From a virus (Duplodnaviria > Caudoviricetes): a stretch of DNA of 62,696 nucleotides. Under the pieces are notes generated by a model. The model ran no database searches. It was not told the DNA's origin and was given only the letters and a program-made list of their open reading frames with translations. This document shows, piece by piece, positions 19,988 through 49,676 of this stretch (its first letter is position 1; each line of letters begins with the position of its first letter). The stretch spans positions 1 to 62,696 of the IMG/VR virus record IMGVR_UViG_3300021379_000628; one strand, given 5' to 3'. The translations under genes and the position numbers were made by a program.

Positions 19988-20253
19988 AAAACAACTACAA
20001 CGTCGTGATTTGTAATAACATGATAAACTTCTTTATCAATCTCTAATCTGTGAGCGTGTGTTCTATCGAAATAAACGGTATCACCTTCTTTAATACCTTG
20101 AACGTCACTACCACAGTTTAGAACTTTAGCTTGTTTATATCTAACATCAACTCTTTGTGAGTTAGCAAGCATAAGACCTCCATCAGTTTTTTTGATGTTA
20201 TCTTCTTTTTCTATTTCTATAACTATATTTCTACCTATTGCTTTCATCACCAA
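19984..20253 (-). CDS. groES: Co-chaperonin GroES (start possibly at ATG 20247)
   Basis: KTDGGLML mobile loop, IKEGDTVYF, adjacent to groEL. Confidence 0.85.
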   Translation of the reverse strand: MVMKAIGRNIVIEIEKEDNIKKTDGGLMLANSQRVDVRYKQAKVLNCGSDVQGIKEGDTVYFDRTHAHRLEIDKEVYHVITNHDVVVVL

Positions 20254-21787
20254 CTCTTAAATTATTGATTACACAATCTGTAGATAAAATAGTAGTAGCT
20301 ACTGAAGCCGCGTTTCTAAGTGCGCTTTTAGTTACTAACAGTGGGTCAATGATTCCGTTTTTAACCATATTGACAAACTTACCTGTAATAACATCAACGC
20401 CATAACCAGTTTTGGGCGTACCATCGTTCTCAAGTCCAGCATTTTTAAGTATAGTATTAAATGGTGCCTTTATTGCTTCAAGTAGTATTTCTTCACCAAC
20501 ACTTTTAGCTTTAATCTTTTTAGAAGCATCAAAAAGCGCTATACCACCACCAGAAACTATACCTTCTTTTACCGCGGCTTTAGTAGCACAGATAGCATCT
20601 TCAACTCTATCTGCTTTCTCTTTTAATTCAATTTCTGAGTTTGCTCCAACTTTTACCACTGCAACTTTAGCAGATAGTCTAGCTAAACGTTTTTCTAATC
20701 TGATTACCTCACCTGGAGACTTAGCTTTATCAAGTTGTTCTTTAACACTTTCTATTAAAGCTTTAACTTGCTCTGTGTCGGTATCAACTTGTATAATTGT
20801 TGATTCGTTATTTGTTGTTGCTTTATCACAGTGACCTAAAAACTCAGGGCGTATAACATCTAAATCATCACCTAAATCTTCGTTGATAACTGTAGCACCT
20901 GTTAAAACAGCAAGATCACTCAGTGTATCTTTTTTGTTAATACCATATACAGGGGCTTCAACAACGTTAACTTTTAAGTTACCTTTAGCTTTATTCATTG
21001 CTAGCGTAGCTAATACTGGCTGTTCTAAATCACCAATAATAAGTAAAGGTTTCTTTTCTTTTATAACGTACTCAAGTACGCTTTGTATTTTTCTAACTGA
21101 TTCAACTCTTGATTCTAATATGAGTACAAGAGCATTTTCTAGTTCAGCTACATTCTTTTCGATGTTTGTAATAAAGTGTGGATTAGATAATCCTTTATCA
21201 TATTCAACACCATCTACAAGCTCAAAATAAGTTTTATCATCTTGAGTTGATTCCATTGTAACAACACCGTTTTCACCTACAGTTCTAAAAGCTTTGCCAA
21301 TTATGCTACCAAGCTCTTCATCGTTATTACAACTAATTGTAGCAACATCATTCAGCATTGTACCTTCAACAGGTATACTAACTTTCTGTAGATAATTTAT
21401 AGTTTTTTCTACAGCTGAATTAATGCCATTTTTAATATTTCTCGGATTATCTTCTTTAGATCTTTTGTAGGCTTCTGTTAAAATTGAGTGCGCTAGCACT
21501 GTAGCCGTTGTTGTTCCATCGCCAGCTTCTTTTACAGTTTTCCTAGCTGCTTCCTTTAAAAGCGTTGCACCCATGTTTTCTACAGGATCTAAAAGTATAA
21601 CCGAGTCAGCAACCGTTACACCATCTTTAGTGATAACAGGTTTTCCTTGATCATTTTCTAAGATTACACATTGACCGCTAGCCCCAAGTGTGGAGCTAAC
21701 GGCTTTTGTGAGTTTTTGTATTCCTTCAAATACTTTGTCTCTGGCTTCGTCGCCAAAGTTTAAATTCTTAACAATTGCGTCAGACAT
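20231..21787 (-). CDS. groEL: Chaperonin GroEL
   Basis: [33 protein letters not shown] motifs; no GGM tail. Confidence 0.95.
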
Positions 21788-27991: not shown

Positions 27992-29056
27992 TTATGCGTT
28001 TTCTAAGGCTTCGATTCTAGCGATAGCTTCTTGTAGAGCTGCAGTAAGTAGTGGGACTAGTTTAGATTTGTCAATGCCTTGATAAATAGCTTCGCCGCTA
28101 TCGTTTACTTCATCTTTCGTTCCTGTTACAGCCTCTGGCACGACACTCTGCACTTCGTGAGCAATAAATCCGTCAACAGTGTTGCTATCTCCTATGAAAT
28201 TAAATCTACTTGGGTTTAGTTGTTTTACTTTATCTATTGCACCAGTGATTCCTACTATATTTTCTTTTAAACGGTAGTCAGAGGTTTCGTTATATGCAGT
28301 ACCAGTACCACTCAAGGATATAGTTCCTTTTGTCACATTAGCTATTTGGAAGCGTATAGCTACGTCACTGTTTTGCTGATTAATTATAAAACTGTCATTA
28401 GAATCAGATTCATTGTTTTCTAAATATAACGCTGGAGCAGATTCATATATAGCGTCTCTTACAATCTCCATTGTTGATCCAGTGTGTACAATGCTAGTAC
28501 TATTTACCAACACTTGGTTGTAAAGACCCTCTATGTATATTGGTGAATCAGCTAATGCTGTTGAGCTACTCATTTTAGGAATATACTGAGCGCTTGATGT
28601 GCTTGTAACTGTACCTGTTCCAGCCCCGATGTCACTTCGTAATTGTGTACCGGTTCTATATTTAATAACACCAGAATCTAGTACAGCGAACTTATCTGTA
28701 TCAACCGTAGCAGCAGTCTCTGGTATTGTAACATCACCTGTAACACCTAAAGTTCCACCCACCGTAGCATTTGAAGTAACAGCTAGTGTAACACCTGAAG
28801 ATACTGTCAAAGATGTTGGGGCTGAAGTACTATCTTGTTTTAACACTGAATCTACAGTATGTGTAGCCGTGTCATACACTGGAATATATGTCGCTGTACC
28901 ATCGTGAAGGCTTGTGTAAATAGCGTCACGCAGTGTCTCGAAAGTTATTGAGTTAGTCTGAAATGCTCCTACGCCTGCAGAAGGCGCCACACTTAAGACA
29001 AACTGGTCTGTTGTTTTGACCGTTTCTGTTATAGGGTAAGAGTATAATATAGCCAT
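27992..29056 (-). CDS. Short tail fibre with peptidase S74 chaperone
   Basis: TSDYRLKENI, GFIAHEVQ, IDKSKLVPLL motifs. Confidence 0.8.
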   Translation of the reverse strand: MAILYSYPITETVKTTDQFVLSVAPSAGVGAFQTNSITFETLRDAIYTSLHDGTATYIPVYDTATHTVDSVLKQDSTSAPTSLTVSSGVTLAVTSNATVGGTLGVTGDVTIPETAATVDTDKFAVLDSGVIKYRTGTQLRSDIGAGTGTVTSTSSAQYIPKMSSSTALADSPIYIEGLYNQVLVNSTSIVHTGSTMEIVRDAIYESAPALYLENNESDSNDSFIINQQNSDVAIRFQIANVTKGTISLSGTGTAYNETSDYRLKENIVGITGAIDKVKQLNPSRFNFIGDSNTVDGFIAHEVQSVVPEAVTGTKDEVNDSGEAIYQGIDKSKLVPLLTAALQEAIARIEALENA

Positions 29057-29083
29057 AGCTTTTTAAAATTCGTTTATATGATA

Positions 29084-29113
29084 TATACTTACAGATTATA
29101 GTGAATTTTTACA
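29084..29113 (-). promoter_or_regulatory. Candidate class-2 (middle/late) promoter; similar copies at 22415-22444(-), 16273-16302(-), 6703-6732(-), 458-487(-), 39203-39232(+)
   Basis: TGTAAAA-N13-TGTAAGTATA; approximate consensus WGKAAAA-N13-WGTRANWATA at gene starts. Confidence 0.5.
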
Positions 29114-29127
29114 TAAGCATTGAAACA

Positions 29128-29172
29128 GTGACAATAGCCTGTTACTTATACTACTTATAAGGCTAATGTCAT
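29128..29172. promoter_or_regulatory. Inverted-repeat operator in the divergence region
   Basis: GTGACAATAGCC-N21-GGCTAATGTCAT; near-identical site at 37628-37671. Confidence 0.65.
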
Positions 29173-29227
29173 ACTTTTTTTGACGTTAGATATATAGGAG
29201 TATGGGGTTACCCCCTATCCCACTGAT

Positions 29228-29240
29228 AATCAATCAATTA
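29228..29240 (+). promoter_or_regulatory. IHF-consensus-like site (second, one-mismatch copy at 29305-29317)
   Basis: AATCAATCAATTA matches WATCAANNNNTTR. Confidence 0.3.
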
Positions 29241-29371
29241 CAAAACACGTTTTAATTTAGCGGGTCCCCCTTTTTCTCAGAATTTACGTTTATATACCCT
29301 TGGTTTTCAATGCGTTACGCGTATACATATTGACATTTTGTACAAAATTACTATACTGTTTAAACTTTTTT

Positions 29372-29402
29372 ACAGACAAAATATAATTTAGTTTGGATAA
29401 TA
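29372..29402 (+). promoter_or_regulatory. Early promoter motif, copy 1
   Basis: ACAGACAAAA-N12-TGGATAATA. Confidence 0.75.
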
Positions 29403-29513
29403 TATATGTAAGTAAATTAATAATGAAACAAATAAAATACTTTACTGTAAGCAAAGAGAAAGAGTGTTATACTTCTCTAACAAATTAAACTAATAAACAA
29501 TAATACACTTATT

Positions 29514-29544
29514 ACAGACAAAATAATTAACTAACTGGATAATA
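29514..29544 (+). promoter_or_regulatory. Early promoter motif, copy 2
   Basis: ACAGACAAAA-N12-TGGATAATA upstream of 29588. Confidence 0.75.
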
Positions 29545-29587
29545 TAATAAACTAAATATAACATATAAATCTTTTAAATTAAATACT

Positions 29588-29818
29588 ATGCAAAATTCAA
29601 TTCAATCAAAACGCTTTGTTATTCGTCAATCTCTCGTAGGCCAAAATCAAATCATTGAAGTCACTTTCAAAAATGGCAAAACTTTCAAATATAATCATGA
29701 CAAAGCATTTGAACTAATGAAGTCAAATCTTGAAAAACTAAACTGTTTTCAAAAATATAAATCATACACTTCATCTACTTCAATTCCAAAAGTATTACAA
29801 AATGCTGAAGTTATCTAA
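29588..29818 (+). CDS. First early hypothetical protein
   Basis: 76 aa behind the tandem promoter motifs. Confidence 0.65.
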   Translation: MQNSIQSKRFVIRQSLVGQNQIIEVTFKNGKTFKYNHDKAFELMKSNLEKLNCFQKYKSYTSSTSIPKVLQNAEVI

Positions 29819-29886
29819 TCAATAACTTTATTACAAAAGTGGGCGTTGAAATGTGTTCTCTCCACTATAAATAAAGTTGAACAGAT

Positions 29887-29928
29887 TAGTCACAATGGTT
29901 AATAGTGGTTCGATTCCACTCGTGACTA
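29887..29928 (+). ncRNA. Minimal tRNA-like element (acceptor stem plus T-arm only)
   Basis: TAGTCAC/GTGACTA stem, AATGGTT linker, AGTGG-TTCGATT-CCACT T-arm, followed by CTAA as in the other two elements. Confidence 0.55.
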
Positions 29929-29943
29929 CTAATACAAATAATT

Positions 29944-30099
29944 ATGAGAAAGTTTCAACACACAAATCTACTTGAAGTAGTATTAAAACTCTACGCCTTT
30001 TCACTCGCTGGTTTATCAGTAATTGGAGCGTTATCACTAATAATTGGTTTAGTAACAGGCGAAATAGTAGTACCAGAATCCGCTTTCGGTACTTACTAA
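29944..30099 (+). CDS. 51-aa membrane protein
   Basis: MRKFQH...LYAFSLAGLSVIGALSLIIGLV; single hydrophobic helix. Confidence 0.55.
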   Translation: MRKFQHTNLLEVVLKLYAFSLAGLSVIGALSLIIGLVTGEIVVPESAFGTY

Positions 30100-30101
30100 T
30101 C

Positions 30102-30132
30102 ACAAACAAAACATTACACTAACTGGATAATA
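30102..30132 (+). promoter_or_regulatory. Early promoter motif, copy 3
   Basis: ACAAACAAAA-N12-TGGATAATA. Confidence 0.75.
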
Positions 30133-30149
30133 ATATAAAATAATATACT

Positions 30150-30284
30150 ATGCAATTTATACTAACTTGTCAAAACGGTAAACAAATAGATATGTCTTCA
30201 TATATACTATCTCAAATGAAAGGTGAGATGACTCGTGAAGAAGTTCAAACTCGTATTGACTACTACAAATCAAATAATCTATGA
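30150..30284 (+). CDS. 44-aa hypothetical protein
   Basis: MQFILTCQNGKQ...; ATGA overlap with 30281. Confidence 0.55.
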   Translation: MQFILTCQNGKQIDMSSYILSQMKGEMTREEVQTRIDYYKSNNL

Positions 30285-30538
30285 AACACAGAGGCGTAAA
30301 ATACAACTACAAAGAGTGGATCACTTGGAATGGTAAGATAGTTAGCGGTTATGACTGTGACCATTTTAACTTCTCACCATATTATGTAGCAAGTTTTGCC
30401 ACTAAGACTGAAGCCGAGATGATCGCTCGTATAGATGATTATCTTGACAATGTAGACGAATACACTCGTCGTCGTGAACTAAATAACAAAGCAGCTCAAG
30501 AATTCTACGATTCAATGGGCGAATATAAAGGAGATTAA
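30281..30538 (+). CDS. Early hypothetical protein
   Basis: 85-aa ORF. Confidence 0.6.
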   Translation: MKHRGVKYNYKEWITWNGKIVSGYDCDHFNFSPYYVASFATKTEAEMIARIDDYLDNVDEYTRRRELNNKAAQEFYDSMGEYKGD

Positions 30539-30540
30539 CT

Positions 30541-30744
30541 ATGGGATACAAAAGACTTTACTGTAATGAAGAAACAATTGACACGCTCGTTGAAGTAGCA
30601 AAGCAAGACGGGTGGGATGTAATGGTGAAAGATGCTTTCATGATAGTCGAGAAATTCGCTGACTATGAAAATATGGAAGACAGATTTAACCAAACTAGAT
30701 CACTAATAAGTGAAGTTGGTTACAAGATTACAAACAAAATATAA
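30541..30744 (+). CDS. Early hypothetical protein
   Basis: 67-aa ORF. Confidence 0.55.
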   Translation: MGYKRLYCNEETIDTLVEVAKQDGWDVMVKDAFMIVEKFADYENMEDRFNQTRSLISEVGYKITNKI

Positions 30745-30760
30745 TATCCTTTGGATAATA
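30730..30760 (+). promoter_or_regulatory. Early promoter motif, copy 4
   Basis: ACAAACAAAA-N12-TGGATAATA. Confidence 0.75.
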
Positions 30761-30785
30761 TATATGAACATTTAAATAATTAACT

Positions 30786-30995
30786 ATGCAATCAATAAAA
30801 TTCAAGTCAGATAAGACTATTAAAATCAATGGCGAGATCTATAAACCATACTTAGTTGGCGATCTTCCACCAAGTTTTGGCTTCAAATATCAAGACAATG
30901 GTGATGGTACTTTCACTGAAGGCCACTCAGAATGGTTCAATTACAAAGGTTTAACTTATCTTAAAAAGAAAGAAGGTTGGTATGATGCACTCTAA
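30786..30995 (+). CDS. Early hypothetical protein
   Basis: 69-aa ORF. Confidence 0.6.
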   Translation: MQSIKFKSDKTIKINGEIYKPYLVGDLPPSFGFKYQDNGDGTFTEGHSEWFNYKGLTYLKKKEGWYDAL

Positions 30996-31236
30996 TCCAA
31001 CTACAATGGCGGAACTATGCGCTTACGTCAAACAAGAAAGAATCAAGCGAGCTGCGGAGCATAGACGCAGATTCGCCACAGAAGGCAGATGTCGTGGACT
31101 TACTGACAAAGAGTATATGAATTTAACTCATAAACAAAAGTCAAGCTTTGCTAAAGCTCGTAAGTTCACTCATCATGCCATGTGGAAAGAGACGCATGAG
31201 AAATGGGATTTAAAACTAATGACTAAGAAGAAATGA
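30982..31236 (+). CDS. Early basic hypothetical protein
   Basis: 84-aa ORF. Confidence 0.55.
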   Translation: MMHSNPTTMAELCAYVKQERIKRAAEHRRRFATEGRCRGLTDKEYMNLTHKQKSSFAKARKFTHHAMWKETHEKWDLKLMTKKK

Positions 31237-31592
31237 GTAAATTTGGTTTAGTAATAATGAACGAGCTTGAAAGAAATGTATTACAAATAGCACTTGATCA
31301 CTTTGAAGAGCATTTAACAAGTATTAGTGATGAAGTTGATGTAACAGATAGATTAAAAGCTTGTAGAGATTTAAAAAAAAACAATAAAATGAGTAAAACA
31401 AAAGAACTAGAAGAAATAGCCGCGTGGATTGCTGATTCTATTGATGATACTATTATGTCAAATGCGGAATGGTCTATGGATGGGAGTAGCTTTGAAGATC
31501 TTGAAGGTGACGATTACTATGAAGCGCAAGAAGCTATTGCAGCAAAAACAGTGGAAATACTGTATAACAGGTGGTTCACAAACAAAAAATAA
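31233..31592 (+). CDS. Early hypothetical protein (possibly two genes fused at an A9 run)
   Basis: Internal AT-rich ATG at 31389 right after A9 at 31373-31381. Confidence 0.5.
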   Translation: MSKFGLVIMNELERNVLQIALDHFEEHLTSISDEVDVTDRLKACRDLKKNNKMSKTKELEEIAAWIADSIDDTIMSNAEWSMDGSSFEDLEGDDYYEAQEAIAAKTVEILYNRWFTNKK

Positions 31593-31608
31593 TAACCTCT
31601 GGATAATA
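31578..31608 (+). promoter_or_regulatory. Early promoter motif, copy 5
   Basis: ACAAACAAAA-N12-TGGATAATA. Confidence 0.75.
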
Positions 31609-31630
31609 TAATAAACAAAAATAAACAAAT

Positions 31631-31819
31631 ATGTATTGTAGATGCGGAAAATCTGTGCACCCTGTGCGAATAAATTTAGGTTACAAAAGTTGTGTAGACT
31701 GTTCAACTATGCAGACTTATAGTTATGTACCTATCATTGAGCATAAGACAGGCAATACTATTCAAATCGTTAGCCAAGAAGTATCAGCAAGTGTTCACAG
31801 AGCTTGGCGGCGTAAGTAG
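31631..31819 (+). CDS. Small zinc-finger protein
   Basis: CRCG...R...G...CVDC (DksA/TraR-like Cys spacing). Confidence 0.55.
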   Translation: MYCRCGKSVHPVRINLGYKSCVDCSTMQTYSYVPIIEHKTGNTIQIVSQEVSASVHRAWRRK

Positions 31820-31852
31820 CTGGAAGGTGCTGCTGTTAGCGGCAGGCTACTA

Positions 31853-31945
31853 GGGCGTGAAATGGTTGGCGAGACAGTATCTGTGAGGCGTGTAAGACCT
31901 CTAACGACAGTATCTCAAACGCAGGTTCGATTCCTGCCACGTCCA
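31853..31945 (+). ncRNA. Mini tmRNA-like/tRNA-like RNA A (93 nt)
   Basis: Acceptor GGGCGTG/CACGTCC with G3-U70 and A73, stemless D-loop AAATGGTTGGC, GAGA/TCTC stem, T-arm GCAGG-TTCGATT-CCTGC. Confidence 0.75.
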
Positions 31946-31960
31946 CTAAAATTATAAAAT

Positions 31961-32215
31961 ATGAGTGAAATGAAAACACTTTACGAAAGGTTAAAGCCTG
32001 AAATTAAAGACAAACTATTGCAACAAGACAGAAAGTACAGTGAAAGTGTTCGTAACATTATCGCTAAACTTGACAGTAACAAGTTTGTTTCTGAATTAAC
32101 GCTAAGTGATGTTAGAAATATTCATATATTTTCTGACACTGACTACATGGACCAATCCGCTTACGAGCTAATGTGGTGTGAAAAATTATTTGAAGATGAC
32201 AAAGGAAACGATTAA
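31961..32215 (+). CDS. Early hypothetical protein
   Basis: 84 aa; starts 15 nt after RNA A. Confidence 0.6.
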   Translation: MSEMKTLYERLKPEIKDKLLQQDRKYSESVRNIIAKLDSNKFVSELTLSDVRNIHIFSDTDYMDQSAYELMWCEKLFEDDKGND

Positions 32216-32444
32216 ATTACGAGCGCATGATAAGGCAATGGCACAAATCCATGCTAATCAATTGAAAGTCAGAAAGTTAAAGTATGATGTGGAAAGAGAA
32301 AACACAGGTGTTATAACTATGCATGAGTTAGAGATCTGTTTAGAGTCAGCTAAACGAGAACTTGAAACTTGGAATTATATAATGAAACTAATAGAATTAG
32401 ACTATGGAAAACACGATTACGCTGATGAAATACTTGGGCATTGA
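32178..32444 (+). CDS. Early hypothetical protein
   Basis: ORF, probable start at ATG 32196. Confidence 0.55.
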   Translation: MKNYLKMTKETIKLRAHDKAMAQIHANQLKVRKLKYDVERENTGVITMHELEICLESAKRELETWNYIMKLIELDYGKHDYADEILGH

Positions 32445-32757
32445 AGAGATTACAACGCCTAAACAAAAGTTAAATGGTACTAGAAATTTTGCTTTACCTT
32501 ATTATATAAGAGGTAAGCGGGTGACAATAGCCTCTTATCAAACGGGTTATGTTAGAATTGACAGAAACTGTCATAGTGCTTATCAAGTAAATCCTACATA
32601 CAAAGTACCTTACAAAGTAATTGGTAGAGATGGTAAACTTAGAACTTGGACAAGTACAAAACGCATAATGATATACGGAGAAGAAAGTCGTATTGATTTT
32701 ATATTTAACTACGTATTAAAAAACTTTTATAAAAAACAATGGAAAACAATAAACTAA
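32404..32757 (+). CDS. Early hypothetical protein
   Basis: 117-aa ORF. Confidence 0.55.
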   Translation: MENTITLMKYLGIEEITTPKQKLNGTRNFALPYYIRGKRVTIASYQTGYVRIDRNCHSAYQVNPTYKVPYKVIGRDGKLRTWTSTKRIMIYGEESRIDFIFNYVLKNFYKKQWKTIN

Positions 32758-33209
32758 CTCAAGAATTACTTGAGCGATTATTAGCTGAAGATGGTGTGAC
32801 TGTAGCTGAAGATACAAGCTTTGCAGACATGTTAAGTAAAGCAAGTAATCATTTTGACTTTAAAATTACAGACGAGTGGAATGCTAACACAACATATTTT
32901 TTCTATACAGAGACAACTGCTGACGGATATGAGGTGTGGGTTGCCACCGATGATGACCAAAAACCTAGTATAAATGATGATATTTATTACTATGAAAGTG
33001 ATTGGCTTGAAAAAATGCAAGATGCTATGACAGATGGTAATAACATTTACTTTCAAGAACTGAATGATGAAAACCCCAACTTTGAAGAGGTTATCTTAAA
33101 TGTTTATGAAGAATATTATAACGATAAAAAACAAGAACTAGAAGAAAAATTAATTGATGATGGTTACGAATACGAAAACGAAGATGAAGCCGTTACCGAA
33201 GTGGTTTAA
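32739..33209 (+). CDS. Highly acidic early protein (DNA-mimic candidate)
   Basis: Very D/E-rich, few basic residues, aromatic-rich. Confidence 0.5.
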   Translation: MENNKLTQELLERLLAEDGVTVAEDTSFADMLSKASNHFDFKITDEWNANTTYFFYTETTADGYEVWVATDDDQKPSINDDIYYYESDWLEKMQDAMTDGNNIYFQELNDENPNFEEVILNVYEEYYNDKKQELEEKLIDDGYEYENEDEAVTEVV

Positions 33210-33432
33210 TGGTGAAGTGTACCCAAAAGGTGATACAGTAAAAAACATATTTACAGGTATGCCAGCAGAGTTAAATGCTAATGAGCTTAGTATGTATGAC
33301 TTTATTATGGGTTGCAACATGATACTAGAACGTACTAATTTTGCATCTCAAAAGCTAATAAATGAAATGCGTAAAGGTATTGACTGGTTTAGATCAGCTA
33401 ATCCTTCAGCGTATATGACACTATTAGATTAG
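33154..33432 (+). CDS. Early hypothetical protein
   Basis: Probable start MKPLPKWF at 33184. Confidence 0.55.
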   Translation: MMMVTNTKTKMKPLPKWFNGEVYPKGDTVKNIFTGMPAELNANELSMYDFIMGCNMILERTNFASQKLINEMRKGIDWFRSANPSAYMTLLD

Positions 33433-33440
33433 TGTCTACT

Positions 33441-33543
33441 GGGCGTGAAATGGTTAGACAAATTGGGGAGGCGATGTAACTTCGTTCAGAAGTGAGCCCA
33501 CAGTGAACAATTTGTAACGCGGGTTCGAATCCCGCCGCGTCCA
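33441..33543 (+). ncRNA. Mini tmRNA-like/tRNA-like RNA B (103 nt)
   Basis: Acceptor GGGCGTG/CGCGTCC with G3-U70 and A73, D-loop AAATGGTTAG, 8-bp ACAAATTG/CAATTTGT stem, T-arm GCGGG-TTCGAAT-CCCGC. Confidence 0.75.
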
Positions 33544-33564
33544 CTAACTTTAAAATTAATTATT

Positions 33565-33759
33565 ATGCCTAACATGAGTTATTGCCGTTTCGAAAACACG
33601 GTGAATGATATGCAAGATTGTTTAAACGCTATTGAAGAACGTGATACAAGCGAGCTAAGCAATTATGAGGTTCGAGCTCTTAAAGAGTTTTTAGAACTAG
33701 GACGTACTATTATAGAGTTTGAAAATGAAATCGAAGAAATACTAGAAGAATATGAATAG
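33565..33759 (+). CDS. Phage hypothetical protein (MSYCRFENT type)
   Basis: NMSYCRFENT..D...C motif often seen in phage early genes. Confidence 0.65.
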   Translation: MPNMSYCRFENTVNDMQDCLNAIEERDTSELSNYEVRALKEFLELGRTIIEFENEIEEILEEYE

Positions 33760-33946
33760 AGATAAACACATATGGGAAGGTTGGACAGTCGGTGATTTCA
33801 TTGACGATATAGAACCTATATTTAATATGTGCGCTCCATTCCACGACAAGCAAAGTCTTAAACGTTGGGTTGCACAAGAACAACCTTACTATAAGAAACA
33901 TATACCAGAAGTATACAATTACTTCTTACAAAAATCAGGATTGTAA
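33752..33946 (+). CDS. Early hypothetical protein
   Basis: IWEGWTV..FI...QPYYKK motif. Confidence 0.6.
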   Translation: MNRDKHIWEGWTVGDFIDDIEPIFNMCAPFHDKQSLKRWVAQEQPYYKKHIPEVYNYFLQKSGL

Positions 33947-34101
33947 TGGGATTTAAAGAAACAAAATTTAAAACAATTAAACTAACAGAAGGCGACGCTA
34001 CATTTGTGCATTATGTACTACGAATGTACGCCCAGCAAACACCTGGGCTTGACAGCGATGACAAAGAAGAAATACGTGAAGTCGCAGCTAAATTTAAATA
34101 A
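33946..34101 (+). CDS. 51-aa hypothetical protein
   Basis: TAATG coupling on both sides. Confidence 0.6.
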   Translation: MGFKETKFKTIKLTEGDATFVHYVLRMYAQQTPGLDSDDKEEIREVAAKFK

Positions 34102-34547
34102 TGGGAACAAGATCACTAACACGAATTATACCGCGTCAAGAAGGTTTAGCTTATGACGATGGGCACAGGCGAGCAGAGCTTGCGCTTGTGAATATTTATC
34201 AGCAATATGATGGTTATCCTGAATATATGGCAGTAGAATATGCTAAATGGTTAAAAGATCTTAGTATTGGTAATGGCTTAGGTAAAGATCCAGAGCTTAA
34301 TAAATACGCAAATGGTGTAGGTTGTTTTGCCGCTCAGTTTATTAAACAATTTAAAGATCGACCAGGCGGTTTGTATTTACATCCAATAGATAATGAGATT
34401 GGTTGGATTGATTATATATATACTCTATACCCTAAAGAAGGTCACGATACTTACATGTCTATATACGATGCGTATAAAGAAAAAGTTATATTCGTAGGTA
34501 AACCAGATAAAGTATTAGAAAAATACGAACAAGAAGAAACGGTATGA
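34101..34547 (+). CDS. Phage hypothetical protein (MGTRS...YDGYP type)
   Basis: MGTRS, IYQQYDGYP, NGVGCFAAQ motifs. Confidence 0.65.
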   Translation: MGTRSLTRIIPRQEGLAYDDGHRRAELALVNIYQQYDGYPEYMAVEYAKWLKDLSIGNGLGKDPELNKYANGVGCFAAQFIKQFKDRPGGLYLHPIDNEIGWIDYIYTLYPKEGHDTYMSIYDAYKEKVIFVGKPDKVLEKYEQEETV

Positions 34548-35793: not shown

Positions 35794-36075
35794 GTGGGTT
35801 ATAACAGATTACCCAAAAGAATTGAAACCAAATGGAAGAATATGACAGAACAAGAAATAGATTTATTAGCTGAAAAAATAGTTGAAAAGCTTTTTAGTAG
35901 TGGACATTTTCAAGTTGAAGAATATCCTGCTGCAACAGATGAAGAAATATACGTAGCAGAACTAGCAAGACTTATGACCCTATTGTCAGCGTATGAAGAG
36001 ACAGAGCAGTACGAGAAAGCTGCTATAATTAAAAATAAAATAGACAGAATACAACATCAATTAGATAGACTATGA
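35794..36075 (+). CDS. UvrB/UvrC (UVR)-motif protein (start probably ATG 35842)
   Basis: C-terminal EQYEKAAIIKNKIDRI. Confidence 0.55.
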   Translation: MGYNRLPKRIETKWKNMTEQEIDLLAEKIVEKLFSSGHFQVEEYPAATDEEIYVAELARLMTLLSAYEETEQYEKAAIIKNKIDRIQHQLDRL

Positions 36076-36902
36076 TTAAACCAATGTTAGCTCACAAGGT
36101 TAATGATAATAAAATTGACTTCAGTGAGAAAGTTTTTATACAACCAAAGCTTGATGGTGTTCGTTGTATATTTACTAAGGACGGGGCTTATTCTCGTACT
36201 GGTAAAAAGTTTTACAACTTACGTCATATCGAGTTAAGACTTGAAAATTTCTTCAAGTTACACCCTTTTACCGTGCTAGACGGCGAGTTGTATAATCATG
36301 CTCTAAGAGACGATTTCGAACAAATCATATCATTAGTAAGAAAACAAAAACCGACTGACGAGGACCGCCGAAACGCACAGCATTTAATACAATATCACGT
36401 GTACGACTGCATAGCTGAAGGTCCTGATTACAATGAAAGACTTAACTGGCTAAAGTCACAACGTAAATTATTTAACAACGTAGTTATTCCAGTTGAAACT
36501 TTACATGTGTACAGTTATAGAGACGCGACAGAAACGCATAAGTTATTTTTAAAGGAAGGTTATGAAGGTTCTATCTTACGTTTGAATCGTCCTTACGAAC
36601 AGAAACGTAGTTATAATCTTATGAAGTTCAAAGACTTCAGTGATGATGAAGCTACAATTATAGGTTATGAAGCTGGTAAAGGTAAACGCGCGGGTACGCT
36701 TGGTAAATTCTTTATGATAGATGATAAAGGTGTGGAGTTCGGTTGTCCTCCAGGTAAAGGTTTCAATTACAAAGACTTAGCTGATATACTAAATAATGTA
36801 CATGACTACGTAGGCAAGCGAGCAACCTTTACTTATTTCGAACGAACTAAAGCAGGTAGCTATCGTCACCCGCAATTTAAATGTATACGTGATTATGAGT
36901 AA
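36072..36902 (+). CDS. ATP-dependent DNA ligase (minimal type)
   Basis: QPKLDGVRC (motif I), LDGELY, YHVYD, EGSILR, KFK. Confidence 0.92.
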   Translation: MIKPMLAHKVNDNKIDFSEKVFIQPKLDGVRCIFTKDGAYSRTGKKFYNLRHIELRLENFFKLHPFTVLDGELYNHALRDDFEQIISLVRKQKPTDEDRRNAQHLIQYHVYDCIAEGPDYNERLNWLKSQRKLFNNVVIPVETLHVYSYRDATETHKLFLKEGYEGSILRLNRPYEQKRSYNLMKFKDFSDDEATIIGYEAGKGKRAGTLGKFFMIDDKGVEFGCPPGKGFNYKDLADILNNVHDYVGKRATFTYFERTKAGSYRHPQFKCIRDYE

Positions 36903-41072: not shown

Positions 41073-42782
41073 ATGCAGACAACAGAGATCAATGGATTCT
41101 TGATTGACACGTTCAATCAATATGGTCTAGAAGAAGGTAAAACGCAGGGGATTTGTCCCCTGTGTTCGTCTGATAGACAACCCAAAAACCAGAAAGCAAA
41201 ATGTGCTTCATACGATTGGGAACGTGGTCTTGGTACTTGTCATAATTGTAATACAACTTTTCAGTTACATAGTTATCAACGTAAAGGTGCTAGTGAAAAG
41301 GTTTATGTTAGACCTGAAGAAACTCATTATCCACCAGTTAAAGATAAGGTAACTGAATGGTTTGAAAATCGTGGTATATCACAAAGGACTCTTGACGATC
41401 TTAAGGTTAGTCAAGGTCCTGAGTGGATGCCGCAGACTGGTAAGACCGAGAATACCATACAGTTTAATTATTTAATGGGCGATCAACTTATTAATATTAA
41501 ATACCGAGACGGCAGGAAAAACTTTAAACTATATAAAGGTGCTGAAAAAGTATTTTACAATATTAATAGTATTGTTGGTTATAAAGATTGTATAATTACT
41601 GAAGGTGAAATGGATGTACTAGCTTTTCATGAAGCTGGTGTTAAAAACGTAGTATCAGTTCCAAATGGCGCTACACTTACAAATAATAATTTAGATTACT
41701 TAGATAATTGTATTGATTATTTCGAAGATAAAGAAAGAATATTACTTGCAGTTGATTCAGATGAAGCTGGACAGATGTTACAGCAAGAGCTTATTCGTAG
41801 GCTTGGAGCTGAAGTTTGTTTTCTAATAGACTTTGATGAGTGTAAAGATGCTAATGAATACTTAATTAAATATGGAAAAGACGAGCTGGCAAAGCGTGTT
41901 ACAAAAGCAAGACCAGTACCACTGGAAAATGTTACAACTTTCAAAGACATCGAAGGCGAGATTACTGACTTCGTTACTAACGGATTCAAGCCGGGATACC
42001 AAGTTGGCCTTCCGAATTTTGATGACATATTTTCGACTTATACTGGTCAATTCATTACTGTTACTGGCATTCCGTCCAGCGGTAAGTCAGACTTTGTTGA
42101 CCAAATGGTGGTTGGCTATAATTCGAACTATGGGTGGAAAACAGCATTTGCTTCGCCAGAAAATGCTCCGACTTATTTACACGCACATAAGTTAATGCGT
42201 AAAGTATGGGGTGACATGCCTAATAAATCAGATATTGGTGGTGATAAATGGAAGCAGGTTGCTGAGCATGTAAACGACAATTTCTTTTTTATAGACATGG
42301 AACGTTATACCCTTGAATCTGTATTACGTAAAGGTGCTGAACTTGTGAAACGTAAAGGTATTAAGTGTTTGGTTATTGATCCATTTAATAAAGTACGAGA
42401 TGTTGATGCTAAAACAGAAGACATAAACAGATACACAATGGATTATTTACAGAAGATAGAAATGTTCTGTAAGAAATATGATGTACTTGTTTTTATTGTA
42501 GCGCATCCAACTAAAATGTATAAAGATAAAGATGGAAATATCGAAGAGCCGACGATGTATAATATTAAGGGCGGTGGTGAATGGTATGATGCTAGTTATC
42601 ACGGTTTATTAGTACATCGCAATTACGAAGAGAAAACAGTTAAAGCTAAAGTTCTTAAGGTTAAGTTTCAAAACCTTGGTGAAAACGGTGCTGAAGCACA
42701 TTTCAAATGGGAACCAAAGTCAGGTTGTTTTCTTCCTCACGTACCTATGGTTACAGATCTTGAGCCAATGCCTTGGGAATAA
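41073..42782 (+). CDS. T7 gp4/Twinkle-like primase-helicase
   Basis: Zn finger CPLC..CHNC, TOPRIM EGEMD/DSDEAG/KDANE, Walker A GIPSSGKS, LVIDP, VAHPTK. Confidence 0.92.
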   Translation: MQTTEINGFLIDTFNQYGLEEGKTQGICPLCSSDRQPKNQKAKCASYDWERGLGTCHNCNTTFQLHSYQRKGASEKVYVRPEETHYPPVKDKVTEWFENRGISQRTLDDLKVSQGPEWMPQTGKTENTIQFNYLMGDQLINIKYRDGRKNFKLYKGAEKVFYNINSIVGYKDCIITEGEMDVLAFHEAGVKNVVSVPNGATLTNNNLDYLDNCIDYFEDKERILLAVDSDEAGQMLQQELIRRLGAEVCFLIDFDECKDANEYLIKYGKDELAKRVTKARPVPLENVTTFKDIEGEITDFVTNGFKPGYQVGLPNFDDIFSTYTGQFITVTGIPSSGKSDFVDQMVVGYNSNYGWKTAFASPENAPTYLHAHKLMRKVWGDMPNKSDIGGDKWKQVAEHVNDNFFFIDMERYTLESVLRKGAELVKRKGIKCLVIDPFNKVRDVDAKTEDINRYTMDYLQKIEMFCKKYDVLVFIVAHPTKMYKDKDGNIEEPTMYNIKGGGEWYDASYHGLLVHRNYEEKTVKAKVLKVKFQNLGENGAEAHFKWEPKSGCFLPHVPMVTDLEPMPWE

Positions 42783-45502: not shown

Positions 45503-45635
45503 ACCAAACTGGACATTATCATTTGGGTTTTACCCTGGTATTTTATTAGGTATTAGAACTTATGAAGAAGATGAGCAAACAGCTTACGTTTTATATCTTC
45601 CTTTTATTGACATTGCTCTTGAAGTTTATCACTAA
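45471..45635 (+). CDS. 54-aa hydrophobic hypothetical protein
   Basis: GFYPGILLGIRTY..VLYLPFID; TAATG coupling to nrdB. Confidence 0.5.
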   Translation: MSKNIEDKESKPNWTLSFGFYPGILLGIRTYEEDEQTAYVLYLPFIDIALEVYH

Positions 45636-46603
45636 TGGGATTGTTTGATGAGCGCGTGGCGTACAAACCGTTTGAATATCCAGATTACTATACCGAAGGT
45701 TGGTTGAAACAAGCACAAGCTTTTTGGTTGCACACTGAAATACCAATGCAAGGTGATATTAAGGACTGGAAAGAGAAACTTACACCAGCTGAAAAGAACC
45801 TAGTAGGAAATATCTTACTAGGTTTTGCTCAGACCGAGTGTGCTGTTTCAGATTATTGGACACAAAAAGTTGTTAGTTGGTTTCCTAAACATGAAATACA
45901 ACAAATGGCTATGATGTTTGGATCCCAAGAAACAATACATGCAGTTGCTTATAGTTATTTAAATGAAACACTCGGCCTTGAAGACTTTGAAGCGTTTTTA
46001 CACGACCCTGCTACTGCTGCACGTTTTGAGAATTTGGTTGCTTATAGTGGGGATAATCCTAAAGGAATTGGGACTAGTCTCGCTATCTTTTCAGCGTTTG
46101 CAGAAGGCGTGTCTTTATATTCTGCTTTTGCTGTGTTGTACAGCTTTCAGCTACGGAATCTACTTAAAGGCATCGGACAACAAATGAAATGGAGTGTACG
46201 TGATGAATCACTACACAGTAAAATGGGTTGTAAATTATTCAGAGACATGTGCGCTGAGAATAATCAGCTATTAGGTTTGTGTAGAGATGATATTATCAAA
46301 GCGGCTGAAACAATGGTAAAGCTAGAAACAGCTTACATTAAAAAGATGTTTGAAGCTGGTGATATTGAAGGCATTAGCGCAAATGATTTAATACATTTTA
46401 TAAAAAAGAGAGCAAATGAAAAACTCGTTGAACTCGGTTACCTCGATCTTGGATCGTATTTCCCATTTGACAAAGACGCAGCAAGTAATCTTGATTGGTT
46501 CTATCATCTTACCGGGGGGCACACTCATACTGATTTTTTCGCGATTCGGCCGACGGATTATTCGAAAGCTGGTGAAGGAGAGGATTTCGAAGACATTTGG
46601 TAA
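45635..46603 (+). CDS. nrdB: Ribonucleotide reductase class I beta subunit
   Basis: Metal ligands QTE, ETIH..AY, EG, DESLH; C-terminal DFFA...Y. Confidence 0.92.
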   Translation: MGLFDERVAYKPFEYPDYYTEGWLKQAQAFWLHTEIPMQGDIKDWKEKLTPAEKNLVGNILLGFAQTECAVSDYWTQKVVSWFPKHEIQQMAMMFGSQETIHAVAYSYLNETLGLEDFEAFLHDPATAARFENLVAYSGDNPKGIGTSLAIFSAFAEGVSLYSAFAVLYSFQLRNLLKGIGQQMKWSVRDESLHSKMGCKLFRDMCAENNQLLGLCRDDIIKAAETMVKLETAYIKKMFEAGDIEGISANDLIHFIKKRANEKLVELGYLDLGSYFPFDKDAASNLDWFYHLTGGHTHTDFFAIRPTDYSKAGEGEDFEDIW

Positions 46604-47708: not shown

Positions 47709-47917
47709 TGAAGAAAGCAACAGACATAATTTTAAGATTATATAAATCAGAATATATAACACAAGATGAAGTTCATATTTTGTTGGATGGTATTTGGGAT
47801 AGAAATTATCTTTACAATCCCCCAGTGTTGGATCCATATAAACCAAGTCAGGCTTATAAACCAGAATATAAACAATGGAATATAACAAGTAATAGCGATA
47901 ATACAAATGTGGAATAA
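47708..47917 (+). CDS. Hypothetical protein
   Basis: 69-aa ORF. Confidence 0.5.
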   Translation: MKKATDIILRLYKSEYITQDEVHILLDGIWDRNYLYNPPVLDPYKPSQAYKPEYKQWNITSNSDNTNVE

Positions 47918-49676
47918 TGAATGGAAAAAAGGCGTTGATTACCCAACCTGGGGTGACACAGACGTATACAAGAAGACTATATCCGGGGGATATTTATTAT
48001 CAGGTGAATCACCAAGAGACGCATACCAACGAGTCGCAACAACAGTTGCAAGAAGATTATTTAAACCAGAATTAAGTGAAACGTTTTTTAACTATATTTG
48101 GAATGGTTGGTTAAACTTAGCATCACCAGTATTATCAAATACAGGAACTGATCGTGGATTACCTATAAGCTGTTTTGGTATCGATGTAGGTGATAGTATC
48201 GCTGAAATTGGTAATAAAAACTTAGAGATGATGCTGCTAGCTAAACACGGTGGGGGAGTTGGTATTGGCATTAATATGATACGTCCTGCCGGAGCTAAAA
48301 TAACAGGTAATGGAACATCAGACGGAGTTGTCCCTTTTTGTAAAATATATGACTCAACAATTCTTGCAACTAACCAAGGTTCTGTTAGAAGAGGAGCAGC
48401 AAGTGTTAACATCAACATTGAACATGATGATTTTGAAGAGTGGCTTGAAATTAGAGAACCTAAAGGAGATGTCAATAGACAATCGCTTAACCTTCATCAG
48501 TGCGCAGTTGTGGGCGACAAATTTATGCGTAAGCTTGAACAAGGAGATGCAGACGCTAGGAATAGATGGAGTAAACTTCTTAGAAAACGAAAGTCAACTG
48601 GAGAGCCGTATATTTTGTTTAAGGGAAATACTAATAAAGCGAATCCAGCAGCTTACAAAGACAATGCGCTAAAAGTACATATGACTAATATATGTAGTGA
48701 GATTACACTACATACAGATGAGTCTCATAGTTTTGTTTGTTGTTTATCATCAGTTAATTTAGCTAAATATGAAGAGTGGAAAAATACTAACCTTATTTAC
48801 GATGCCATTTGGTTTCTTGATGGAGTTCTTGAAGAGTTTATCCAGAAAGCTAAAGGGCTTAAAGGATTTGAGAACTCTATTCGTTCTGCAGAAAAAGGTA
48901 GAGCGTTGGGTCTGGGCGTTTTGGGGTGGCATACGTATCTACAGCAAAACGGTATCCCTTTCGAAGGGTTACAAGCACAGTTTGAAACTAGACGTATATT
49001 TTCACAAATCAAAATCGAAAGCGAACGTGCGAGTAGAGCACTTGCTGAAGTCTATGGGGAGCCTCTTTGGTGCCGCGGTACTGGCTTTAGGAATACTCAT
49101 CTTAGGGCTATTGCTCCTACTGTTAGTAATAGCAAGCTTGCTGGTAACGTTAGTCCTGGCATTGAGCCTTGGGCCGCTAATGTTTTCACGGAACAAAGTG
49201 CGAAGGGTACGTTCATTAGGAAAAACAAAGAGCTAATAAAAGTTTTACGTAAAATTGGTATTAATACTGATGAAACGTGGAATAAGATATTAGAAGACGG
49301 TGGAAGTATACAAGGTATTGATGAGCTTGATAACTGGGGATTTGTAGATCGTAGACTTACAAATATAAATGAGCAAACGGTAGATCTTGAATTGAAAGGA
49401 GTTGATATGGTTAAAGACGTATTTAAAACGTTTAAAGAAATTAATCAACTTGAGTTAGTTAATCAGGCTGGTATACGTCAGCAATATGTTGATCAATCAG
49501 TTTCATTAAACTTAGCTTTTCCAAATGAGGCTTCACCTAAATGGATTAACCAAGTTCATTTAGACGCATGGAAAAAAGGGGTTAAAACTTTATATTATAT
49601 GAGGACTGAATCAGTATTACGTGGAGACATTGCCGCAAAGGCTATGGATCCTGACTGTATTGCTTGTGACGGATAG
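47907..49676 (+). CDS. nrdA: Ribonucleotide reductase class I alpha subunit (no ATP cone)
   Basis: PISCF, TNICSEI, APTVSNS, DQSVSLN, KTLYY, C-terminal CIAC. Confidence 0.95.
   Translation: MWNNEWKKGVDYPTWGDTDVYKKTISGGYLLSGESPRDAYQRVATTVARRLFKPELSETFFNYIWNGWLNLASPVLSNTGTDRGLPISCFGIDVGDSIAEIGNKNLEMMLLAKHGGGVGIGINMIRPAGAKITGNGTSDGVVPFCKIYDSTILATNQGSVRRGAASVNINIEHDDFEEWLEIREPKGDVNRQSLNLHQCAVVGDKFMRKLEQGDADARNRWSKLLRKRKSTGEPYILFKGNTNKANPAAYKDNALKVHMTNICSEITLHTDESHSFVCCLSSVNLAKYEEWKNTNLIYDAIWFLDGVLEEFIQKAKGLKGFENSIRSAEKGRALGLGVLGWHTYLQQNGIPFEGLQAQFETRRIFSQIKIESERASRALAEVYGEPLWCRGTGFRNTHLRAIAPTVSNSKLAGNVSPGIEPWAANVFTEQSAKGTFIRKNKELIKVLRKIGINTDETWNKILEDGGSIQGIDELDNWGFVDRRLTNINEQTVDLELKGVDMVKDVFKTFKEINQLELVNQAGIRQQYVDQSVSLNLAFPNEASPKWINQVHLDAWKKGVKTLYYMRTESVLRGDIAAKAMDPDCIACDG

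Follow-up and report, generated by a model that had tools for sequence, protein, structure and literature searches.

Transfer-messenger RNAs (tmRNAs) reduced to their tRNA-like domain (TLD) have so far been a one-line curiosity, known from one mycobacteriophage and a few organelles. Passages in two sources (PMC4131195, PMC11915505) mention that mycobacteriophage DS6A carries a "TLD only" tmRNA and that a molecule similarly reduced to the TLD is a strong inhibitor of tmRNA in E. coli, perhaps via the titration of SmpB, whether or not it can be charged. A passage in the second source (PMC11915505) relates that organellar tmRNAs without a coding sequence (CDS) are found together with SmpB and are believed to assist where an mRNA is incomplete. 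A TLD-only phage tmRNA is thus already known as a kind, if only from a brief mention, and the DNA analysed here, the uncultured virus record IMGVR_UViG_3300021379_000628 (62,696 bp, complete or nearly so (97%), about 34% G+C; hereafter the window), holds new members of this kind. They are two genes on the + strand, mini-tmRNA 1 (31853–31945, 93 nt) and mini-tmRNA 2 (33441–33543, 103 nt), which are accompanied by a micro tRNA-like element of 41 nt (29888–29928, + strand). An earlier sequence-only reading of the window had proposed the two minis, both of which are real, but it missed the third and smaller element. What is new here is a broad family with two or three copies per genome and about 29 conserved types of insert, the 41-nt micro derivative, and the interchangeability of these elements with a true tRNA-Met at one operon site. 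Full-text searches of the literature found no description of a marine or multi-copy TLD-only family; further viral entries are possible in the tmRNA database and in the supplements of PMC11915505.

Both minis begin GGGCGTGAAATGGTT. In mini-tmRNA 1, which was delimited by sequence, folding, and family alignment, the 5' strand of the acceptor (31853–31859) leads into a stemless mimic of the D-loop, AAATGGTTGGC (31860–31870), and then into the helix P2, where GAGA (31871–31874) pairs with TCTC (31913–31916) across an insert; the linker AAAC (31917–31920), the T arm GCAGG-TTCGATT-CCTGC (31921–31937), and the 3' strand of the acceptor, CACGTCC (31938–31944), follow, and the element closes with the discriminator A (31945), after which comes CTAA. 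Mini-tmRNA 2, for which the Rfam tmRNA model RF00023 was used in addition, has the same layout: the 5' acceptor strand (33441–33447), the D-loop mimic AAATGGTTAG (33448–33457), a P2 in which ACAAATTG (33458–33465) pairs with CAATTTGT (33508–33515), the linker AAC (33516–33518), the T arm GCGGG-TTCGAAT-CCCGC (33519–33535), the 3' acceptor strand CGCGTCC (33536–33542), and the discriminator A (33543), again before CTAA. The acceptor is paired at 7/7 positions in both, with G3:T70 in each and also T6:G67 in mini-tmRNA 2, and the two T stems differ by a compensatory change of A-T to G-C. CCA is encoded in neither mini, CTAA being in its place. This architecture (the common 5' end, the T arm, the 7-bp acceptor with its A and CTAA, the missing CCA, P2, and the compensatory T-stem pair) is the one that the sequence-only reading had described, and it was recovered in full. 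The inserts themselves are dissimilar: that of mini-tmRNA 1 has a 10-nt direct repeat, GACAGTATCT, at 31873–31882 and 31906–31915 around a hairpin GAGGC...CCTC, and that of mini-tmRNA 2 has a hairpin ACTTC-GTTCA-GAAGT. The shared 5' 15-mer occurs exactly twice in the window, GGTTCGAWTCC with at most one mismatch occurs three times against 0.56 expected, and there are only three perfect 5-bp T arms in the intergenic DNA of the window; a chance origin of the two minis is excluded.

The elements are almost certainly structured RNAs derived from tmRNA, and sequence comparison establishes their structure, their conservation, and their homology to tmRNA. ARAGORN found no tRNA or tmRNA gene in the window, and Rfam at its gathering thresholds gave no match for the elements. 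Below these thresholds, RF00023 aligned mini-tmRNA 2 from end to end (38.9 bits, E 1.4e-13, for a gathering score of 47), with 304 positions of the model replaced by 38 nt; the matched parts are the acceptor, the GA..UGG..GAC motif, the first pairs of helix 2, and the T arm. RF00023 was also the best Rfam model for 13 other members of the family (32.3–40.4 bits). The ordinary tRNA model, RF00005, gave no match at the gathering score, the tmRNA model being the best within the tRNA clan, and the true tRNA-Met genes of the relatives reached 58–67 bits with the same tool. The mitochondrial tmRNA model of that Rfam clan scored no higher than RF00023, in a search that suppresses the lower-scoring members of a clan. 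These searches, together with a 5' end shared with full-length phage tmRNAs and with the covariation described below, uphold the earlier proposal of tmRNA-like RNAs with alanine identity and no anticodon arm.

In their sequence features the elements conform to a tmRNA TLD, with a 7-bp acceptor with G3:U70, a T arm (5-bp stem, 7-nt TTCGANT loop), and, without any D stem, a D-loop mimic with GG in which the 5' motif GA..UGG.UU.GAC runs into helix 2; the discriminator A73 is found in both minis and in 45/47 elements of the family. With canonical tmRNA (RF00023), the minis share the 7-bp G3:U70 acceptor, A73, the GA..UGG..GAC motif, the T arm, and the beginning of helix 2; they differ in having neither a resume codon nor a tag frame and in scoring below the gathering threshold; at 93 and 103 nt, that is, around 100 nt as against some 300–370 nt, they have no pseudoknots, and there is no room in them for PK1–PK4. 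The source of the head is indicated by three viral contigs that were matched by the covariance model of the family and in which ARAGORN calls full-length tmRNAs of 294–317 nt (L044:7825–8118, L064:2849–3161, and L089:5669–5985), two of them with ordinary tags that end in AA. The three share the start GGGCGTGAAATGGTTTCGAC and the end GGAC.CGGGTTCGACTCCCG.CACGTCCA, again with no encoded CCA. The first 15 nt are identical between the minis and these tmRNAs, and the next 5 nt are nearly so, so that the minis have their head in common with genuine tmRNAs of a phage lineage. (The tag that ARAGORN gives for L044, AERNTSNKVLTTLKVSGGGVRKAAR, is atypical and may be wrong.) A host tmRNA was considered as the source and rejected: in the five genomes that hold the elements, or that were matched together with them, the tmRNAs have TLDs unlike that of the phage (GGGGCTG..., GGGGTCG..., GGGGGTG...); the phage TLD was therefore not copied from them in recent times.

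The DS6A element, which has an entry on the tmRNA Website, was located at 28478–28560 of JN698994, a record in which it is not annotated; it is 83 nt long and scores 43.2 bits with RF00023, which is below the gathering score, and 37 bits (E 2.6e-8) with the family model. Like the elements of the window, it has a G3:U70 acceptor, a stemless D-loop mimic (in DS6A, CAATGGTGGTCGAC), a short P2, a small insert, a T arm, and no encoded CCA, its end being A-CTA. It differs from them in the sequence of the acceptor, in G+C content, and in host, since DS6A is an actinobacterial temperate phage; moreover, a single copy was seen in DS6A, whereas here there are two minis and one micro element per genome at a fixed position in the early operon. 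The CDS-less tmRNAs of jakobid and oomycete mitochondria and of two Mallomonadaceae plastids, as presented in passages of PMC11915505, similarly retain little beyond the TLD; unlike the viral elements, they are organellar, single-copy, and cellular, the comparison being with their description only. The acceptor GGGCGTG/CACGTCC with A73 is identical to that of tRNA-Ala(CGC) genes of several bacterial phyla, and it is joined here to a molecule that, unlike tRNA-Ala, has no D stem, anticodon arm, or variable loop and whose 5' motif continues in the manner of a tmRNA. Minihelices made of an acceptor and a T arm are substrates of alanyl-tRNA synthetase (AlaRS). Other non-decoding RNAs with tRNA-like modules, some of them in phage tRNA clusters, include the YrlA Y-RNA-like RNAs and the stable species 1 and 2 RNAs of T4; YrlA carries its tRNA-like module internally and has a Ro-binding stem formed by its ends.

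The family to which the minis belong (class 1) comprises 47 distinct elements of 69–149 nt, collected with a pattern combining the 15-mer and the T-loop in viral stretches and with a scan for the 3'-end pattern in bacterial and archaeal genomes. The 15-mer was found in 94 viral stretches, roughly the number that chance was estimated to give in so large a collection, and 36/94 have the T-loop motif within 140 nt. The elements come from uncultured viral contigs and from a few contigs of metagenome-assembled genomes (MAGs). All share the 5' end GGGCGTGAAATGGTTAG and the 3' end AACGCAGGTTCGATTCCTGCCACGTCCA, which enclose a hypervariable middle opened by the P2 helix; the 5' 15 nt and 3' 28 nt of mini-tmRNA 1 are identical to the consensus of the other contigs. 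In an alignment of 43 sequences, the acceptor and T stems are 100% paired, and 8/8 P2 pairs have changed on both sides; one of these pairs, for example, is UA in 15 sequences, AU, CG, and GC in 8 each, GU in 2, and UG in 1, with none unpaired. The covariation score of P2 is 0.291 against 0.098 in shuffles (0/500 reach 0.291), and sliding the partners gives at most 0.097. The conservation and covariation that the sequence-only reading had called for are therefore found. A covariance model built from this alignment scores mini-tmRNA 1 at 73.4 bits and mini-tmRNA 2 at 74 bits, both being among its training rows, and with filters off it finds nothing in the whole window beyond the two minis and a weak match at 29841–29928 (see below). 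In distant-mode blastn against 50,697 GenBank phage records, mini-tmRNA 2 had no match, and mini-tmRNA 1 had only T-arm-level matches to tRNA genes (22 records, at most 34% query cover).

The alanine identity of these RNAs looks to be under selection. G3:U70 is present in 46/47 of the collected elements, a figure biased by their ascertainment through patterns. A less biased sample consists of 80 viral loci that were fetched via the protein encoded downstream of mini-tmRNA 2, in which the family model made 36 matches (30 distinct rows). In this sample, pair 3:70 is G:U in 20/24 informative distinct rows, A:U in 2, and G:C in 2, and the adjacent pair 4:69 is C:G in 17, A:U in 4, and G:C in 3; 4/5 T-stem pairs co-vary in the alignment, which was fitted to a model that favours pairing. 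The acceptors GGGCGTG, GGGGGTG/CACCTCC, and GGGAGTG/CACTTCC all retain G3:U70 and A73, and the exceptions are the micro elements and a subclass, AGGCGTG...T73, with G3:C70. The persistence of the G3:U70 wobble beside neighbours that compensate suggests that charging by AlaRS matters.

From these comparisons, we infer the following course of events, from processing to the effect on the host. The minis would be genes for tag-less mini-tmRNAs descended from the phage tmRNA lineage, in which the acceptor, the D-loop mimic, the T arm, and the base of helix 2 have been retained and closed by a small structured insert. Transcribed within an early polycistronic transcript, they would be excised by the host's tRNA-processing enzymes, with RNase P cutting at G1 and an RNase Z-type enzyme past A73, and would then receive their CCA from the host CCA-adding enzyme. 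Relatives often have a mini element 5–12 nt from a tRNA-Met(CAT) gene, and the same CTA(A/T) trailer follows minis and tRNA-Met genes, which plausibly agrees with both having their 3' ends processed, and CCA added, by host enzymes in the same way. Host AlaRS would charge the RNA with alanine via G3:U70 and A73, and host SmpB, joined by EF-Tu once the RNA is charged, would bind it; no SmpB gene (PF01668) was matched in the phage, so any SmpB partner would be that of the host. Maturation and charging with alanine are probable. Since they have no resume codon, tag frame, or pseudoknots, the minis cannot tag proteins, and the outcome would be competition with host tmRNA for SmpB and for stalled ribosomes, such that tagging, downstream proteolysis, and mRNA decay would be damped or replaced by at most one added alanine. 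That the main role is interference with host trans-translation, or substitution for it, is a proposition that the sequence evidence leaves evenly balanced. The inhibition by TLD-only RNA is said to go back, in the citations, to Mao et al. 2009.

Several observations weigh against this interpretation. The patterns used to collect the class-1 alignment and the 47 elements fix parts of the sequence themselves. The folding energies compared with shuffles are weak (mean-field z of −1.31 and −1.80), so the case for the structure rests on comparative data. RF00023 gives mini-tmRNA 1 only 16.5 bits, in a truncated alignment, because its junction between D-loop and P2 deviates (UUGGCGAGA). At the P2 base, G.A is followed by a non-canonical A.G in the tmRNA consensus but by a Watson–Crick A-U in most elements; in mini-tmRNA 2, GAAAUGGUUAGAC, compared with the Rfam consensus, GAucuGGaUUCGAC, keeps G.A as the first pair and has A-U for A.G as the second. 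CCA is not encoded, the trailer after A73 being CTA in 42/47 elements and CCA in 1/47; an encoded CCA is also absent from the full-length phage tmRNAs, the DS6A element, and one Bacteroidetes MAG tmRNA. A pure SmpB sponge fails to explain the retention of G3:U70, because inhibition by the TLD-only molecule needed no charging, as a passage in PMC4131195 has it, and it leaves unexplained some 29 conserved and compensating types of insert. Finally, the tRNA-Met, the micro elements without P2 and G3:U70, and the subclass with G3:C70 and T73, which are found at the same operon site, cannot act alike via AlaRS and SmpB.

This last point leads to the explanation that survives best among the alternatives, unlikely as it is on balance, namely that the elements are tRNA-like processing signals. 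Here, selection would act on the top half of the molecule (the acceptor/T helix and the elbow of D-loop and T-loop), which is the minimal substrate for RNase P, RNase Z, and the CCA-adding enzyme; cleavage would divide the polycistronic RNA of the early genes and leave the gene downstream with a short and well-defined AU-rich leader. The RNA cut out would be no more than a by-product, with tmRNA features retained by descent. The three elements of the window all lie between ORFs on the same strand, with the next ATG 15, 15, and 21 nt past the discriminator. In 80 loci with homologues (L342–L421) of the 64-aa ORF downstream of mini-tmRNA 2 (33565–33759), a T arm lies within 300 nt upstream in 26/80 and is lacking in 54/80. 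The 15/26 of these that were examined closely include a true tRNA-Met(CAT), class-1 minis, other minis, and micro elements; the distance from their end to the ATG is around 20 nt in most, and what follows them is usually a CTAA(T/C)TTTAAA-like leader. A processing signal is the best account of this interchangeability and of the micro forms, and the worst account of the conserved alanine identity, there being no need in it for a near-invariant class-1 acceptor, for G3:U70 with A73 (20/24), or for a tmRNA-type P2. The 54/80 loci without an upstream T arm show that the gene does not depend on one, and tRNA genes are in any case near ORFs in compact phage genomes. At the site of mini-tmRNA 2, the sequences suggest a cassette-like gain, loss, or replacement. 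One metagenome contig fuses 33438 to 33544, mini-tmRNA 2 being absent or replaced in that relative, and a loose contig end at 33538 reads as a micro element with a class-1 acceptor.

The micro element of the window shows how little may be kept. Its acceptor strand AGTCAC (29888–29893) pairs with GTGACT (29922–29927), and between these are the D-loop mimic AATGGTTAAT (29894–29903), the T arm AGTGG-TTCGATT-CCACT (29904–29920), and a bulged C (29921); the discriminator A (29928) is again followed by CTAA, and P2, the insert, and G3:U70 are all missing. A diverged copy of the class-1 5' end, GGGCGTTGAAATGTGTT, lies on the + strand at 29841–29857, 30 nt upstream of the element, and may be the remnant of a longer element. 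The family covariance model aligns 29841–29928 as a single weak full-length match (20.2 bits, E 0.0044), and the predicted fold of this stretch has no long acceptor. The micro form in general consists of an acceptor of 5–7 bp, AATGGTTAA, and a T arm; its pattern, AATGGTTAAYNNNNGTTCGAWTC, is found in at least 117 viral stretches, with 71 distinct sequences among the matches listed. The acceptor strands of these 71 co-vary freely and are mostly without G3:U70, a freedom that speaks for a processing signal, the elbow motif being fixed by the search pattern itself. Intermediates of the form GGGCGT-AATGGTTAAC-T arm-ACGTCC connect the micro form to class 1.

The inserts bear on another possibility, which is decidedly unlikely: that the tmRNA head is a modular viral platform, a near-invariant handle, chargeable with alanine and able to bind SmpB, by which one of some 29 or more interchangeable structured cassettes, kept up by selection, is brought to SmpB, EF-Tu, or the ribosome, or is merely stabilised and matured. 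The inserts would then be the real effectors, each for a different host target, and recombination at the conserved ends could exchange cassettes between phages; the series of full, mini, and micro forms at a fixed site would combine a processing signal with a sponge for host factors or an anti-defence decoy. The 44 inserts that were examined fall into 29 types with no common motif, frame, or stop codon; GCGAA occurs in 6 of these types, for 1.6 expected, and GTAA in 13, for 7.3 expected. In pairs of contigs that share an insert type, the whole element is 90–96% identical in 8/13 and 76–82% identical in 5/13, with flanks that are 66–88% identical or cannot be aligned. Between the inserts of L034 and L208, GTAT/ATAC has become GCAT/ATGC and ACTCG/CGAGT has become ACTTG/CAAGT, and the insert common to L022, L024, and L035 passes from GGC/GCC to GGC/GCT to AGC/GCT. 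These compensatory differences mean that the inserts are maintained structures rather than filler.

Three other explanations of the inserts were tried and rejected. As mini reading frames or carriers of a shared motif, they display nothing universal, and the differences between L034 and L208 that look synonymous are compensatory changes in stems. As antisense RNAs, the two inserts of the window share no stretch of 12 nt or longer with the rest of the window in either orientation, and 10–11-mers are at the level of chance. As members of known RNA families, they gave no match: across 17 loci, only tmRNA and tRNA were matched in Rfam at E <= 0.05.

Another possibility, quite improbable, is that of a tag-less rescuer of ribosomes, in which the alanine-charged mini would go with host SmpB into stalled ribosomes and take over the nascent chain, with drop-off or a host release factor resolving the complex; ribosomes would be recycled during infection without a degradation mark, as is suspected for the CDS-less tmRNAs of mitochondria and plastids. 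The structural evidence is the same as for interference with trans-translation, and the retention of G3:U70 and A73 points to charging and hence to entry into the ribosome. On the other hand, the 29 insert types have no stop codon or frame in common, and, to our knowledge, no release step is known for a complex of mini-tmRNA, SmpB, and ribosome. The co-occurrence of the CDS-less organellar tmRNAs with SmpB, in the passage already cited from PMC11915505, is in favour of rescue, and the sole experimental precedent quoted in the passages of PMC4131195 and PMC11915505, which is one of inhibition, is not.

A role as decoy or sponge for host defence proteins that act on the acceptor ends or elbows of tRNAs, such as toxins that modify or cut the 3' end, has very little probability; the sequence-only reading had raised a nuclease decoy among its proposals, along with the titration of SmpB, AlaRS, or EF-Tu and tag-less rescue, and the decoy has no specific support. 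Defences that target tRNA, and phage countermeasures to them, do exist (general text in PMC11090510), and several copies and size classes per genome, a position in the early region, and the diversity of the micro acceptors would suit such a role; however, the elements are not linked to any gene for defence or anti-defence (none of the ten nearest ORFs has a family assignment), an RNA lacking an anticodon loop would not distract anticodon nucleases, and the tmRNA-type P2 and alanine identity are left unexplained. It is scarcely credible that the elements are decaying tmRNA or tRNA pseudogenes, or selfish cassettes without function for the phage, passing from full tmRNA to mini to micro: a size series does exist (294–317 nt, 69–149 nt, and about 41 nt), one insert type occurs in contigs whose flanks cannot be aligned (L059 and L066), and mini-tmRNA 2 is absent or replaced in the contig that joins 33438 to 33544, but conservation is much higher in the elements than in the coding DNA beside them, all their helices, including the hairpins within the inserts (L034 and L208), keep their pairing through compensatory changes, and the family persists over dozens of divergent contigs. 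These explanations are not all exclusive, processing being a part of maturation in every functional one.

What sets the viral elements apart from the TLD-only tmRNAs known hitherto is the large size and strong conservation of their family, found in phages that are uncultured and apparently marine, with several copies per genome and the alanine-specifying positions kept. If the binding of SmpB and the charging are true, these phages would have an RNA-only means of switching off or bypassing the host's protein-tagging quality control, and the 29 or so insert types, along with the contrast between mini and micro, would be a ready mutational series on what a lone tmRNA head can do. The interchangeability with real tRNA genes at one operon site makes the idea of tRNA punctuation testable in phages.

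As regards their surroundings, the elements are in a block of + strand genes (about 29.5 to 50 kb) that is flanked on both sides by structural genes on the − strand and that begins with many small ORFs, which precede DNA ligase, primase/helicase, and ribonucleotide reductase. Both minis are G+C-rich and occupy intergenic gaps in the first 4 kb of this block. The divergent intergenic region ahead of the small ORFs has two sigma-70-like promoter matches on the + strand (29330–29387), TTGACA-16-TATACT (11/12) and TTTAAA-17-TATAAT (10/12), which are matches to the consensus only; no terminator-like site was found on the + strand in 29000–34200. It is plausible that the three elements are co-transcribed with the early genes, and, from their position in the small-ORF block behind these promoter matches, they may be expressed early, as the sequence-only reading proposed. 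Mini-tmRNA 1 is followed by an 84-aa ORF without a family match (31961–32215, + strand), which starts 15 nt past the discriminator, and mini-tmRNA 2 by the 64-aa ORF already mentioned (33565–33759, + strand; phrog_8760, function unknown), whose ATG is 21 nt past it. Among the ten neighbouring ORFs, there was no Pfam match and this one PHROG match, and for the 64-aa ORF the Atlas gave viral hypothetical clusters only.

The phage has no close relative among the deposited phages, in which a megablast of 31000–34500 found no match. The replication genes are at 36072–36902 (ATP-dependent DNA ligase), 41073–42782 (primase/helicase), and 45635–46603 and 47907–49676 (the two subunits of ribonucleotide reductase), all on the + strand. 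A GroEL-type chaperonin is encoded at 20231–21787 on the − strand, and its best phage relatives, which are around 41% identical, are from Flavobacterium phages. As a weak guess, the host might be one of the Bacteroidota: two MAGs that carry elements are labelled Bacteroidetes, one type of mini has the TGGTTTTGAC motif of their tmRNAs, and the ORFs are without Shine–Dalgarno-like leaders; the sigma-70-like nature of the best promoter matches counts against such a host. Relatives were seen in marine and sponge metagenomes, from which assembled contigs aligned to the window; the low cover of these contigs over the inserts carries no weight as evidence.

In cellular genomes, class-1 elements occur on short contigs of a MAG labelled Aliivibrio and of a MAG labelled Bacteroidetes and on a 56-kb contig (L208) of another MAG labelled Bacteroidetes. 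The MAG contigs with minis (L105, L208, L130, L154, L155, and L205) look like phage DNA that was binned into bacterial MAGs. The chromosome of an Anaerovoracaceae MAG (L179:5026–5172 / L221) has a longer, G+C-rich variant of the family, a tmRNA-like element of 147–150 nt, GGGCGTGAAAGGTATTCGATGAAGC ... GCTTCATACGCGGGTTCGATTCCCGCCACGTCCA, which scores 39.5 bits with RF00023 and 46 bits with the family model; it may be in a prophage, and the same chromosome also has a normal tmRNA.

A second tRNA-like class, AACTAGGTATGG...CTAGTTAC, is found in related phages, where it often adjoins a class-1 element; there is none in the window. It reads AACTAGGT(A/C)(T/A)GG ... CTAC(Y)GACG(R)GTA(W)(R)AGG-TTCGAWT-CCTC.CTAGTT(A/G)C, is variable in its middle, and lacks G3:U70; examples are L022:8763–8860, L024:8803–8895, L029:8093–8226, L062:3462–3566, and, on the − strand, L078 near 2259.

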